DNA of 64,000 bases from Escherichia coli (GTDB lineage: Bacteria > Pseudomonadota > Gammaproteobacteria > Enterobacterales > Enterobacteriaceae): NCBI RefSeq assembly GCF_024298765.1, contig NZ_CP101210.1; one strand, 5' to 3'. This document shows, one piece after another, positions 6,041 through 54,865 of this stretch. The position numbers and the translations under genes are program-made. The notes below the pieces were generated by a model. The model did no database searches, was not told the origin of the DNA, and saw only the letters and a list, made by a program, of their open reading frames with translations. Positions within the stretch are counted from its first letter, which is position 1. Each line of letters begins with the position of its first letter.

Positions 6041-6400
6041 TTATCCACGTTTCAGTTTAAGCGCCAATGATAGAGCATTCTGTGATAGTGGATCATGGGG
6101 AAAGATCACATCGGGCTGTAAATCACCCGCATGCATGCCGGTAATTGCGGGAATTTTTTGCGGTCGGGCGAAGACGGTCAGTCCTTTCATAAACAAGGTG
6201 TCGACGATGCGCTGCTGATCGTCCAGCGCAATAGCGACCACGACCCGCGGTTTAAAGCGCCCGCTGGAACGGCCCACGCCAACCCTCCCTTGCTGGCATA
6301 GCGTGTCGAAGGCACGGTTAAAACGAGAAATTTGCCAACCGCCTAAGGCCAGTTGCGCACACCAGGCGATAACGGCGACGGTGATGAGTGCGGATACCAT
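6041..6400 (-). CDS. gutM: Glucitol operon activator GutM
   Basis: 119-aa ORF between srlD and srlR; synteny. Confidence 0.85.
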   Translation of the reverse strand: MVSALITVAVIAWCAQLALGGWQISRFNRAFDTLCQQGRVGVGRSSGRFKPRVVVAIALDDQQRIVDTLFMKGLTVFARPQKIPAITGMHAGDLQPDVIFPHDPLSQNALSLALKLKRG

Positions 6401-6431
6401 AACTTCTCCGTAATGTAGTGGCGGAAGTCCT

Positions 6432-6460
6432 GTAGGCCTGATAAGCGTAGCGCATCAGGC
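6432..6460. repeat. REP (repetitive extragenic palindromic) element
   Basis: gtaggcctgataagcgtagcgcatcaggc palindromic unit in the gutM-srlD spacer. Confidence 0.7.
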
Positions 6461-6505
6461 ATTCTATTAGTCGCGCGGAGATCCTTAACGGATCTCCGCT
6501 GTTAA

Positions 6506-7660
<1,155 letters not shown>

Positions 7661-7670
7661 GTTTCAGCCT

Positions 7671-9208
<1,538 letters not shown>

Positions 9209-51261: not shown

Positions 51262-52086
51262 TCAGGCGGTGAAAGTCCCAATAAAGGTTTCTACTTTGCT
51301 GTCCTTGAATTTCTCAACAAGCAGATCACGAAATTCGTTAGCCATATCTTCCTGCACCGCTTCCAGCTGAATAATGCGCAGAACCAGTACAGGACGATCG
51401 CCAGTGATAATGCTGAGGCGTAATTTAAACGGACGTTCTTTCAGACCTTCAAACGGAACGCATTTAAACTCAAATGCCACTGGCATAATGTCTTTGGTCT
51501 TCGCTTCGACAGACTCCATCAGGGAGCGTTTGCCGCTGAAGTCATTATCTTCAAAATCAGCAGTCTGGTTTGCTTCAATCGTGATTTTACGGACCGCCGC
51601 AGCCGCTTTTGTTGCCTGAATGGTGTCACCATTAGCATCAAAGCCCACAAGATAGTCGGCCCAGTCTTCGATCCATTCTGCCAGTGATTTCTGGGAGTTA
51701 CGCTCTCCATTAACAGACAACAGAGCAGAGAACGGTGCTGTCTTTTTCAGTTTGAGAGTGGCGGTGTTATCTGCGTGACCTGGTTCATCAATAGTACCCA
51801 GGTTAAGCACACTGACGGCACGCATATTATCAGCATCGATAAAGCAGCGGGTGCCTTCATCTGCAAGATCTTTAGAATAACGGGTAAAGTCATCAATGCT
51901 GGCAGTGGAAAGCGCACCACGGAAACGGAAGCGATTTAAATTAAATTTTTCCAGATCATGAATGCGGAAATTCTCAGGCAATGCCACAGCATCGGCACCA
52001 ATCTTACTGATAATTTCATTAACACCCTGAGCAGAAATAAGAGCATGGATTTGATTAATTGCGGTTGCGTCTAAGTTCTGAGACAT
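51262..52086 (-). CDS. Phage protein, YfdQ-like (DUF2303 family)
   Basis: 274-aa ORF adjacent to the YfdR-like gene; size and neighbourhood match CPS-53 YfdQ (from memory). Confidence 0.6.
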
Positions 52087-52151
52087 AATAAGTCCTCACT
52101 ATATAAAGATATTCAGTGATGAGATAAATAATCAGTTAATTAAGAACGATA

Positions 52152-52514
52152 TTAATGACCTGCTGCGCGGAGTTTTCCGTCAGGCTCACCGGCAAGAGTC
52201 AGTAATTGTCCCTGGTCTTCCTGCAGAATAGTCAGGCGACCACCGCGATTGACATACATCGGCGTTTCGGTGGTGTCTTCTTCGGAAATTTTCCCACGGT
52301 TAGTCGGGCGAACATATGAGAGTTTGTGTTTGATTTTCACACGGTTCTCATCAAATGGTTCGATTTCCAGGTTGAGTGAGACCTTACCTTTGGTTTTCGT
52401 GTTCATCACACCGGAAGCGACTTCACTGAGAACTGCGCCGATTTTGGTTTCAAATACGCCGCCGTCCAGCTCCCCGATAAATGCCTGCACATCAGTACTG
52501 CGTTCGCTAGCCAT
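52152..52514 (-). CDS. Phage hypothetical protein, possibly YfdP-like
   Basis: Start placed at MASERSTDVQ (ATG ~52514) with SD AGGAG; about 120 aa; the longer ORF-track extension runs through an 18-bp inverted repeat. Confidence 0.55.
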   Translation of the reverse strand: MASERSTDVQAFIGELDGGVFETKIGAVLSEVASGVMNTKTKGKVSLNLEIEPFDENRVKIKHKLSYVRPTNRGKISEEDTTETPMYVNRGGRLTILQEDQGQLLTLAGEPDGKLRAAGH

Positions 52515-52857
52515 TTTGCTGCTCCTCATCATATCGACCCTGCAAGGCCGATTAGTTTCTCCACAAAACAGAGAAGAACACCTGCGGTGGCAGCCGCCCG
52601 GATGGATTGGGTTATGAGCCCGTCGTCCGATGATGTTCTTCTCTGTTTTGTAAAAAGAGCGGTACCAGCCGGAAGCAAGTGTACAAACTGGTACCGCCAA
52701 AGCAGTGGCTGTTGTGGTGACCGGTGCTGATCTCCGGCTTGCGGTTATTTCAGACTCTCACGGGCGTTTAATTGCCCCGCCGAACAGCTCTTTTCCGCAA
52801 TAGCTGCAATGTCTTTCGCGCATCAGCCTGCGCATTCACCACAACTCTAAAAACAAA

Positions 52858-52908
52858 TGTAGGATATCCAACGTGTGGGTGTCAAGAGTTTATGTTGGTT
52901 ATCCTACA
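52858..52908. promoter_or_regulatory. OL-like operator pair (repressor binding palindromes)
   Basis: tgtaggatatccaac (52858-52872) and tgttggttatcctaca (52893-52908); same half-site family as the OR sites. Confidence 0.6.
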
Positions 52909-52925
52909 TAAAAAGATAGGCTCAT

Positions 52926-52951
52926 AAAAAAACCGGGGATACCCCGGTTTT
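52926..52951 (-). terminator. Rho-independent terminator downstream of the cI-like gene (bidirectional-capable)
   Basis: ccgggg-ata-ccccgg hairpin flanked by A7 and T4. Confidence 0.65.
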
Positions 52952-52971
52952 GCGATAGTGAGGAAGATGTG

Positions 52972-53625
52972 TCAAAAATCCATTATTACTTGTTTGACAA
53001 GACCAACTATTCTGCAGTTCTCACCGCATTCAATAGTTTTATAGTTAGGATTTAGTGGGACGAGATACCTGTTCGGCCAGTCCTCAACAAATTTTTTGAG
53101 TGTCGCTTCTTGCCCACCATTGATATGGGCAACAACGATTTTTCCGTTAATACACTCTGTATCAATAATATCTGGCTCTACGATAACGATAGAACCTTCT
53201 GGTATCGATGGTGAGCCGAGGGGATTGGTCATTGAATCACCACGGACCCGTAGTGCAAATGCCATTTCTGATACAAGGGCGGTAGTATAAACCCACTCTT
53301 CAGCATCTTCTTTCCTGACACCAGGCTCCGTCATTGTCCATGAACCCGCCTGAACCCACGAGATGAGGGGGACTTTTTTAACTGCGAATATTTCAGGTTT
53401 TAGATTTATCTTTGGTTCAGGCGAGCCTTTTCCGCTAACAAGCCACAGAGGATCGCATTTAAGTGCGTTGGCTAGGGCTTGAAGGTTGGCTCCATTTGGT
53501 TGGTAGTCGTCCTTTTCCCATCCAGTAACCGTGACACGGTTCACACCAGTCAAATCAGCCAGTGCTTGTTGTGTCAGGTTCAGTTCTTTTCGCCTTTGGC
53601 GAATACGATCACTCATGTTCATCAT
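52972..53625 (-). CDS. CI-like prophage repressor (HTH + S24 LexA-type peptidase domain)
   Basis: 217-aa ORF; N-terminal HTH (LNLTQQALADLTGVNRVTVTGWE), C-terminal GDSM serine motif; divergent from the cro-like gene. Confidence 0.88.
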   Translation of the reverse strand: MMNMSDRIRQRRKELNLTQQALADLTGVNRVTVTGWEKDDYQPNGANLQALANALKCDPLWLVSGKGSPEPKINLKPEIFAVKKVPLISWVQAGSWTMTEPGVRKEDAEEWVYTTALVSEMAFALRVRGDSMTNPLGSPSIPEGSIVIVEPDIIDTECINGKIVVAHINGGQEATLKKFVEDWPNRYLVPLNPNYKTIECGENCRIVGLVKQVIMDF

Positions 53626-53689
53626 GTAGGCAATCCTACCACATGCTCATGTAGGATTCTTGACATTGATATGTTGGATATCCTACATT
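53625..53689. promoter_or_regulatory. OR-like operators and PR/PRM region
   Basis: Palindromes tgtaggcaatcctacc (53625-53640), tgtaggattcttgaca (53650-53665), tgttggatatcctaca (53672-53687); TTGACA -35 at 53660-53665; first operator abuts the cI start codon. Confidence 0.6.
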
Positions 53690-53720
53690 TCTGCTTAACG
53701 TAATTTAACGGGAGACAGAA

Positions 53721-53918
53721 ATGCGGAAATCCGACGTGATTAATTATTTCGGCGGAGTTTGTAAAACCGCCGAAGCCCTAGGTATTAAGCATCCGTCTGT
53801 TTCAGAGTGGCCTGAGATTATTCCTGAAGGCCGAGCGTACCAGTTAGAAAAAATTACTAACGGGAAACTGAAAGTTGACGTGTCTTTATATCAAAAGACT
53901 AACAGTGCTGCGGCATAA
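53721..53918 (+). CDS. Cro-like small DNA-binding protein
   Basis: 65-aa ORF divergent from the repressor with operators between them. Confidence 0.7.
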   Translation: MRKSDVINYFGGVCKTAEALGIKHPSVSEWPEIIPEGRAYQLEKITNGKLKVDVSLYQKTNSAAA

Positions 53919-53945
53919 AAACACCACAGAAATGAGGAATTAACC

Positions 53946-54530
53946 GTGGGTAAAGAACCTGAATGGAAAGTTGATAAACAACCAGCATGGCTGGTGGCAG
54001 CAATACGAAGAACGATTGCTGATTTACCTCATGGCTATGAGGAAGCAGCAGAAATTCTTGGTTTGTATAAATCTGATGATATCACCCCAGCAAAAGATCA
54101 ATTGCATAACAGACTGCGTAGCGGTGGGGATCAAATTTTTCCACTTGAGTGGGCCATGGTTTTACAGGATGCCAGTGGTACCAGGCATGTAACAGATGCA
54201 ATAGCCCGTCGTAGTAATGGGGTGTTTGTGCCGCTGGTGGTCATTGATGACATTGACAATGGTGACATTAATCAGCGGCTGATGGAGTCAATAGAATGGA
54301 TTGGCAAGCATTCCCAGTACTTACGCAAGGCAACTGCTGATGGAGTTATTGACCAAGCTGAGCGTGAGCAAATCGAAGAGAACAGCTACCAAGTAATGGC
54401 GAAGTGGCAGGAGCATTTAACACTGTTATTTCGTGTTTTTTGTGCGCCGGAAAAGAGTAACGCCCGCGAGTGTGCAGCTCCGGGCGTCGTGGCGTCGATT
54501 GCTTCTGGTTGTGGAGAAACTAACGCATGA
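53946..54530 (+). CDS. Phage regulatory protein, CII-like (tentative)
   Basis: 194-aa ORF directly after cro in the cII position; family assignment from position and vague similarity only. Confidence 0.45.
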
Positions 54531-54865
54531 ACAGTTTAACAACACACTACCGTCGTTCGCAACTGATTGCGCTTCCTGTACCGGGTGGAAAAGCGAAGGT
54601 GGAGTATTGCTATGCAGTGAATGTACCAGGTGATAGGGAAATTGTAACCCACAGCTTTGCAGAGTGGGCTGTGGGTGATTTCAACCGGCAGAAGGAGACA
54701 GTCCTTTGCGACAAGTTAACCGCTGGTTCAAAGATCACTACGGAGTGCCCGTCAGAGTCATTCGTTGGGAGCCGGAAACACAACGGGTTATCTACCTCCG
54801 TGAAGGCTATGAACATGAATGCTTCAGTCCGCTCGAACAGTTTCGTCGTAAATTCAGGGAAATAG
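54527..54865 (+). CDS. Hypothetical phage protein (C-terminal part doubtful)
   Basis: 112-aa ORF starting at the ATGA overlap with the upstream stop; the last ~50 aa are low-complexity and overlap ORF 54706-54918 out of frame. Confidence 0.35.

Follow-up and report, generated by a model that had tools for sequence, protein, structure and literature searches.

A predicted P22-like immunity region with its own operator sequence in a lambdoid prophage of Escherichia coli

We analyzed a 64,000-nt stretch of Escherichia coli contig NZ_CP101210.1 (GCF_024298765.1), hereafter the window, which carries at approximately 52,858-53,689 a predicted prophage immunity region consisting of a repressor gene flanked by operator-like palindromes. 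The repressor gene (52972-53625, minus strand) encodes a protein of 217 amino acids with a P22-C2-like N-terminal helix-turn-helix (HTH) and an S24 self-cleaving C-terminal domain, which match HTH_3 at 1.1e-15 and Peptidase_S24 at 3.7e-25. The N-terminal domain also matches the solved P22 C2 structures 1ADR, 2R1J and 3JXB (about 5e-14). For the C-terminal domain the match is lambda cI (E 7e-25), whose VQAG, GNSMT and FKK stand opposite VQAG, GDSMT and LKK here; over its full length, the repressor is 44% identical to P22 C2. Residues A93, G94, S131, K177 and K178, comprising the Ala-Gly cleavage site and the Ser/Lys pair, are invariant in the family alignment. A second in-frame methionine is likewise invariant across the family (Met4 here, with codons 1-4 at 53614-53625; Met6 in P22; Met5 in phage vB_EcoS-733R5, hereafter 733R5), and could be structural or an alternative start. 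Divergently oriented, a cro-like gene (53721-53918, plus strand) with GGGAGA upstream encodes a 65-residue protein of the P22_Cro family (7.6e-22), and the 194-codon gene downstream of it has a weak CII match (Phage_CP76 at 1.3e-6, score 28.8 against a cut-off of 26). Judged by these homologies, the gene set of an HTH and S24 repressor with a divergent cro-like and then a cII-like gene fits a lambdoid, SOS-cleavable repressor of the CI/C2 type.

A search of the 64-kb window with the 16-bp query TGTAGGATATCCTACA, allowing up to three mismatches, returned four matches (52858-52873, 52893-52908, 53625-53640, and 53672-53687), all of them inside the immunity region; the chance level, set from 100 shuffles, was an expectation of 0.12, and none of the shuffles reached four. 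The natural operator unit is an 18-bp pseudo-palindrome, ATGT(A/T)GG-N4-CC(A/T)ACAT, four full copies of which flank the repressor gene. A first-pass annotation of this DNA had described five related 16-bp palindromes, two to the left and three to the right of the repressor gene; four are indeed full sites at the positions it gave, while the fifth is only a half-site and the unit is 18 bp instead of 16. A weight matrix trained on the operator sites of relatives alone and then run over the window scored the four sites at 22-29 bits; the next-best position reached 8.4 bits, and no further operator above that value was found elsewhere in the window.

The two left operators, OL1 (52857-52874, ATGTAGGATATCCAACGT, 25.5 bits) and OL2 (52892-52909, ATGTTGGTTATCCTACAT, 26.8 bits), lie with their centers 35 bp apart, the outer half of OL1 providing the -10 of the predicted leftward promoter pL and OL2 lying beyond its -35. 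A half-site-like AGATAGGCT near 52914-52922, in the region 19-25 bp past OL2 as in P22, was considered as a third OL site and rejected, as the relatives have nothing there. On the other side of the repressor gene, the right operator OR3 (53624-53641, TGGTAGGATTGCCTACAT on the minus strand) scores 22.1 bits, and OR1 (53671-53688, ATGTTGGATATCCTACAT), which overlaps the -10 of the predicted rightward promoter pR, is the best site of the window at 29.1 bits. The contact between an operator and the repressor start that had been noted earlier is borne out, since T53625 pairs with the A that opens the first ATG and the 18-bp OR3 includes the "AT" of that codon.

The middle right-hand position, OR2 (53649-53666), is not a palindrome; here a perfect 9-nt half-site, ATGTAGGAT (53649-53657), is fused to TTGACA, with the center 22 bp from that of OR1 and 25 bp from that of OR3. 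Scored over 53650-53665 (TGTAGGATTCTTGACA), it has five mismatches and reaches 8.1 bits as a full site and 15.0 bits as a half-site. The window has just four copies of the 9-mer ATGTAGGAT, each of them within OL or OR, and the OR2 half-site makes exact repeats with OR3 and OR1.

The operators are interlaced with two predicted promoters, each with 10 of 12 matches in a scan for consensus hexamers. Leftward, pL (52856-52885, minus strand) combines TTGACA (52885-52880), an 18-nt spacer and TACATT (52861-52856); toward cro, pR (53660-53689, plus strand) combines the identical hexamers TTGACA (53660-53665) and TACATT (53684-53689) over an 18-nt spacer. Transcription would be expected to begin near 52848-52849 from pL and near 53696-53697 from pR. 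The TTGACA that had been seen embedded in one operator is thus correctly read as a -35, that of the TTGACA-18-TACATT promoter facing cro. In both promoters TACATT is the outer end of an operator (OL1 or OR1) plus one T, and the -35 of pR forms the right half of the OR2 hybrid, while that of pL sits in the 17-bp gap between OL1 and OL2. All relatives conserve pR, and the pL -35 is invariant in all of them (6/6 columns). A leftward promoter from the TAGGAT inside OR1 was also considered, and was rejected because no usable or conserved -35 accompanies it. Between the repressor stop and OL lies a predicted intrinsic terminator of the repressor transcript (52929-52951, minus strand), with the stem CCGGGG/CCCCGG followed by a T-run. 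A simple terminator scan missed it at these positions, and the stem changes by lineage in paired fashion (CCGGGG/CCCCGG, CCGGGC/GCCCGG, CCGAGC/GCTCGG, and CCGGAT/ATCCGG) with the T-run conserved.

To place these sites in a comparative frame, we used 80 loci from a scan of viral contigs, most of which have an identical repressor and 18 of which have repressors 76-92% identical; operator positions and spacings were tabulated for 16 loci, and column invariance was counted over nine distinct lineages (repressor identity 76-100%). Intergenic DNA has diverged across the nine lineages, whereas the operators have not: only 4 of 48 columns are invariant in the remainder of the cro-cI interval and 12 of 122 in the remainder of the region after the cI stop, against 13/18 in OL1, 10/18 in OL2, 16/18 in OR3, and 18/18 in OR1. 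The half-sites of OL1 and OL2 are fixed around a variable central 4 bp, the pattern expected of a dimer that touches the outer bases only. Positions are constrained as well: across the 16 loci, OR3 invariably begins 16 nt ahead of the A of the repressor ATG, the distance from OR3 to OR1 is 47-48 bp and the OL pair is constantly 35 bp apart; in every lineage the OR spacings are 22 and 25-26 bp and the OL spacing 35 bp. At OR2, the -35 half is invariant in 9 of 9 columns and the half-site in 6 of 9.

Some 30-40 nt ahead of the repressor ATG, the OR2 half-site itself comes in two conserved versions, ATCCTACAT and (A/T)TCTTACCT. The latter is common to a 92% lineage and to the otherwise dissimilar 76-80% lineages (L064 and L077-L081), a sharing that suggests recombination or selection for a weaker site. 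In L078 and L081, the cro reading frame extends 18 codons further upstream (MLDILHCV...), to an ATG within OR1, which is probably an artefact of open reading frame (ORF) calling because the equivalent start in the window is the conserved MRK.

The proteins follow the same pattern as the sites. None of the lineages that share the operators shows any change in the repressor segment GVNRVTVTGWEKDDYQPNGANLQ or in GIKHPSVSEW, an HTH segment of Cro, while the repressor linker and C-terminal domain vary. In 733R5, whose repressor is 51% identical and has the helix VSRVSVTKWE, GTAAC-type palindromes stand at the same positions, and in P22, with the helix VSNVAISQWE, TTAAG-type palindromes do so; the Cro segment GIKHPSVSEW is altered in both. 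By these alignments palindrome and recognition helix change together, which is the strongest computational indication at hand that both proteins, repressor and Cro, recognize the sites. The earlier proposal that the operators set the immunity specificity of the prophage accords with the evidence at hand: the sites flank an HTH_3 and Peptidase_S24 gene with divergent P22_Cro-family and CII-like genes, overlap two identical, outward-facing sigma-70-like promoters, are conserved amid diverged DNA, and appear to shift with the recognition helix. A comparison with known immunity types, which had been suggested as a check, places the region apart, as the half-site GT(A/T)GG is unlike that of P22 or 733R5.

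As far as sequence comparison can tell, the layout is the plan of P22 immC and not that of lambda. The first-pass annotation had likened the operator at the start codon to lambda, and this parallel does not hold, because lambda OR3 lies 10 bp from the cI ATG while P22 OR3 abuts the ATG, as here. Both this region and P22 immC have 18-bp two-fold sites in which the outer half-sites are conserved and the middle 4 bp free, OR3 set against the start codon (P22 OR3 868-885, c2 ATG 886) with T-A-x-x-A-T of presumed promoter function at positions 4-9, OR spacings of 23/25 bp in P22 and 22/25 bp here, and OL1 and OL2 35 bp apart around a -35. In both, the outer end of OL1 is the pL -10, the Cro protein belongs to the P22_Cro family and the repressor is C2-like. 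The two differ in sequence, with ATTTAAG-N4-CTTAAAT sites (half-site TTAAG) and the helix SNVAIS(Q) in P22 and GT(A/T)GG and NRVTVTG here, and since half-site and recognition helix are both unlike those of P22, the region would constitute a different immunity type and the phages should be heteroimmune. They also differ in architecture: P22 has three full sites in each of OR and OL, whereas OR2 is a half-site here and no OL3 is conserved; P22 OR2 lies between the PR hexamers, whereas here pR is approximately 14 bp nearer cro, with OR1 over the -10 and OR2 over the -35, in lambda-like fashion; and the ATG is 2 nt closer to the -10 here, with OR3 containing the TG of an extended -10 that P22 is without.

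With lambda, the region shares a homologous C-terminal repressor domain, three OR positions governing divergent pR and the repressor-maintenance promoter (pRM), OR1 over the pR -10 and OR2 over the -35, and no room for a leader before the repressor start codon. Lambda differs in having 17-bp sites of another sequence, three OL sites, an OR3 10 bp from the cI ATG instead of overlapping it, and an OR2 centered at -42 as opposed to -32.5 here (counting the first ATG as +1). Phage 933W has three OR sites and only two OL sites (PMC8065619, PMC3317979), and its operators are 15 bp long and symmetric about the central base pair (PMC3317979). The count of three OR and two OL sites is therefore shared with 933W, although OR2 here is a half-site, as is membership among the switches of Shiga-toxin (Stx) phages; the odd-length 15-bp sites contrast with the even 18 bp and 4-bp center found here, and the repressor is only approximately 34-36% identical to the repressors of Stx2a-type phages. 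The layout recurs in 733R5 (L084, 420-495 and 1195-1255): its OR3 (ATGTAACATTGGTTACAT) likewise takes in the AT of the repressor start codon, only a half-site stands at OR2, and the two OL operators, 35 bp apart, bracket TTGACC, with TACATT as the -10. It differs from the window in its GTAAC/GTTAC half-sites and in the changed recognition helices of repressor and Cro, and its region appears, on this comparison, to be a second uncharacterised immunity type. Lysogens of the present type, of 733R5 and of P22 or CUS-3 would be expected to be heteroimmune to one another.

Collectively, these data indicate that the region is very probably the switch between lysis and lysogeny in a lambdoid E. coli prophage, following the P22 immC plan with a DNA specificity of its own. 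From the occurrence and conservation of the sites, their overlap with promoter-like hexamers and the protein homologies, we infer binding, cooperativity, site affinities, the pRM start and leaderless translation as follows. Repressor dimers would bind the 18-bp two-fold symmetric sites ATGT(A/T)GG-N4-CC(A/T)ACAT. On the left, OL1 would be occupied over the pL -10, and OL2 35 bp away on the other side of the -35; on the right, OR1 would cover the pR -10, and the OR2 half-site, which runs into the pR -35, would become occupied only if a neighboring dimer helped. OR3 would cover the putative pRM -10 (TGgTAGGAT) together with the first two bases of the start codon, so that a high level of repressor would stop its own synthesis, and the pRM transcript would start at the AUG or 2 nt before it, making it leaderless or nearly so. 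The P22_Cro-family protein presumably uses the same operators, and SOS-induced self-cleavage at the conserved Ala-Gly bond would relieve repression.

A reading in which the palindromes arose by chance, or are leftovers without a regulatory function, carries almost no weight. The shuffled sequences contradict it, and so do the comparative data: the sites stay conserved where the DNA around them has diverged, keep the same places with respect to promoters and start codon in the 16 loci, and co-vary with the recognition helices. The number of operators is a closer matter. We consider it likely that OR2 functions as a cooperativity-dependent site, on the strength of its perfect half-site, its P22-like spacing and a conservation above that of the spacer background. 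Weighing against this, OR2 falls short of a full site at 8.1 bits and has no counterpart at OL, and in L064 and L077-L081 its half-site has GTAAG, altered at an otherwise invariant G. The same observations would be explained if only four operators existed, with OR1 repressing pR and OR3 repressing pRM in a mirror image of the two-site OL, and with OR2 unbound and conserved for promoter needs, either as the pR -35 and its upstream flank or as a pRM -35. The gulf between 8.1 bits and the 22-29 bits of the other sites, the two lineage groups with GTAAG and the fact that 733R5 likewise has a half-site only at this place speak for such a four-operator switch; even so, it would leave unexplained why one of just four perfect half-sites in 64 kb stands at the P22 spacing from OR1 and OR3, why the half-site columns are more conserved than the adjoining spacer, and why a full OR2 occupies the same place in P22. 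We regard the four-operator switch as a real but distinctly less likely alternative.

The first-pass annotation had further suggested a leaderless maintenance transcript. A putative extended -10 for pRM, TGgTAGGAT (53633-53641, minus strand), can be read within OR3, with its end 7 nt upstream of the ATG (A at 53625); the coding-strand sequence across OR3 and the repressor start is TGGTAGGATTGCCTACATGATGAAC. Its TG deviates from the AT of the operator consensus yet is invariant in all nine lineages, while the preceding base is variable. In the P22 record, the PRM 5' end lies 4 nt before the c2 ATG and the PRM promoter is placed over TAAGAT, at OR3 operator positions 4-9, the very positions taken by TAGGAT here; a transcription start equivalent to that of P22 would fall on an A located 2 nt upstream of the first ATG. 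With the -10 ending 7 nt before the ATG and this equivalent start, the pRM leader would be 0-2 nt long, and the repressor mRNA from pRM is probably leaderless or near-leaderless. The use of the first ATG agrees with the third codon, which varies only synonymously (AAC/AAT) within a conserved ATGATGAAY. In the solved P22 C2 chains, moreover, five residues precede the position aligned to residue 4 of the present repressor, in keeping with the annotation of c2 from its first ATG. Several observations pull the other way. An AGGA in OR3, 8 nt before the ATG, could be a ribosome-binding site for a longer transcript, and the conserved TG might tune repressor affinity instead of forming an extended -10. 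In addition, OR2 is centered at -32.5 from the first ATG (the corresponding distances are 30.5 bp to the annotated PRM start in P22 and 42 bp to the cI start in lambda), and as this is not the activating -42 of lambda, positive autoregulation cannot simply be assumed.

Two other placements of the repressor transcript were weighed against the leaderless one. The maintenance transcript may have a leader after all, beginning upstream of OR3 at a pRM placed elsewhere or at an establishment promoter beyond cro, with the AGGA as its ribosome-binding site and the contact between operator and ATG incidental. In lambda and P22, CII or C1 activates PRE, giving an establishment transcript, and by that precedent one would be expected here too, where a CII-like gene is present and AGGA lies at 8 nt from the first ATG. 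We nevertheless think a leadered maintenance transcript unlikely, as our scan of the minus strand between cro and OR3 contained no promoter-like site, the OR2-OR3 interval is not conserved, the annotated PRM 5' end of P22, whose layout is the same, falls 4 nt ahead of the start codon, and the two kinds of transcript may coexist, as they do in lambda. Still less probable is a lambda-like geometry, in which transcription from pRM and translation would both begin at the third ATG (53616, Met4). Such a start would put OR2 at -41.5 and OR3 at -16.5, near the -42 and -19 of lambda, would account for a Met4 that is invariant even in P22 and 733R5, and would have TACATG, the outer end of an operator, occupying -12 to -7. 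That hexamer, however, is without the final T of a -10 and no conserved -35 accompanies it; the P22 annotation puts PRM in the inner half of OR3; and both the five extra N-terminal residues of the solved P22 C2 chains and the conservation of ATGATGAAY, with only a synonymous change in the third codon, favor the first ATG.

The module and its relatives, with 733R5 and to some extent P22 among them, may represent a sub-class of their own among lambdoid switches, a proposal that we put forward tentatively and hold to be rather less likely than not to stand. Three features would define it jointly. The middle right operator may be a half-site merged with the pR -35, so that its occupancy would depend wholly on protein-protein help; two dimers may bracket the pL -35 exactly 35 bp apart, equal to the phase of an adjacent pair plus one helical turn; and a single 21-bp element may serve as operator, extended -10 and start codon of a truly leaderless mRNA. 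If this is true, the switch could differ from that of lambda in stability and induction threshold, which would be relevant to the Stx1a and Stx2c phages that carry the module.

To assess how widely the module occurs, complete E. coli genomes were surveyed for the 1.3-kb region, at least 80% of which is present in 139 of 5,426. In Stx phages, the repressor-operator switch governs prophage induction and hence toxin release, and the module is found at 99.4-99.8% identity in Stx2c-converting phages, the Stx1a phage Lys8385Vzw, SKA5, and 720R4. An exact-string search of the accessible literature with seven operator variants found no paper containing these sequences, and a search for literature on the Stx2c repressor, operators or immunity turned up only general papers. 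The region is an uncharacterised immunity type, that is, a new specificity within a well-understood kind of switch with no new mechanism, and the operator definition ATGT(A/T)GG-N4-CC(A/T)ACAT can serve as a marker for the immunity group. According to its published description, Lys8385Vzw lacks CI, Cro, CII, CIII, and N (PMC7946995). Yet positions 6273-7831 of its sequence (L001, MT225100.1) match the repressor/Cro/CII-like module at 99.5% identity, under the annotations LexA family repressor, hypothetical protein and DNA-binding protein, which contradicts the published absence of CI, Cro, and CII.

The region downstream of pL has several features of its own. A search of 51900-54600 against Rfam gave only chance-level matches (E = 0.15 and 0.74) and none for an inverted repeat at 52563-52587/52627-52651, which has 25-nt arms that are 88% complementary and 39 nt apart and lies just upstream of the first leftward ORF. 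The overall fold of the pL leader was not significant (z = -1.4), and no second copy of the leader that would make a putL/putR-like pair was found in the window. At 52659-52697 (minus strand), a hairpin GCGGTACCAG/CTGGTACCGC followed by TCTTTTT on the strand of the pL transcript looks like an intrinsic terminator, approximately 150-190 nt past the predicted pL start and before the first leftward ORF. The interval between pL and this hairpin contains no N-like gene and only a 23-codon, Arg/Lys-rich ORF with a GTG start. Just downstream of pL, a segment of approximately 146 bp (52700-52846) recurs at 98-100% identity in mEp460, several Stx2a phages, and P1-like phages or plasmids, where it is annotated in or near plp and where the adjoining immunity genes are not shared; the segment resembles either a mosaic boundary or a leader element under conservation.

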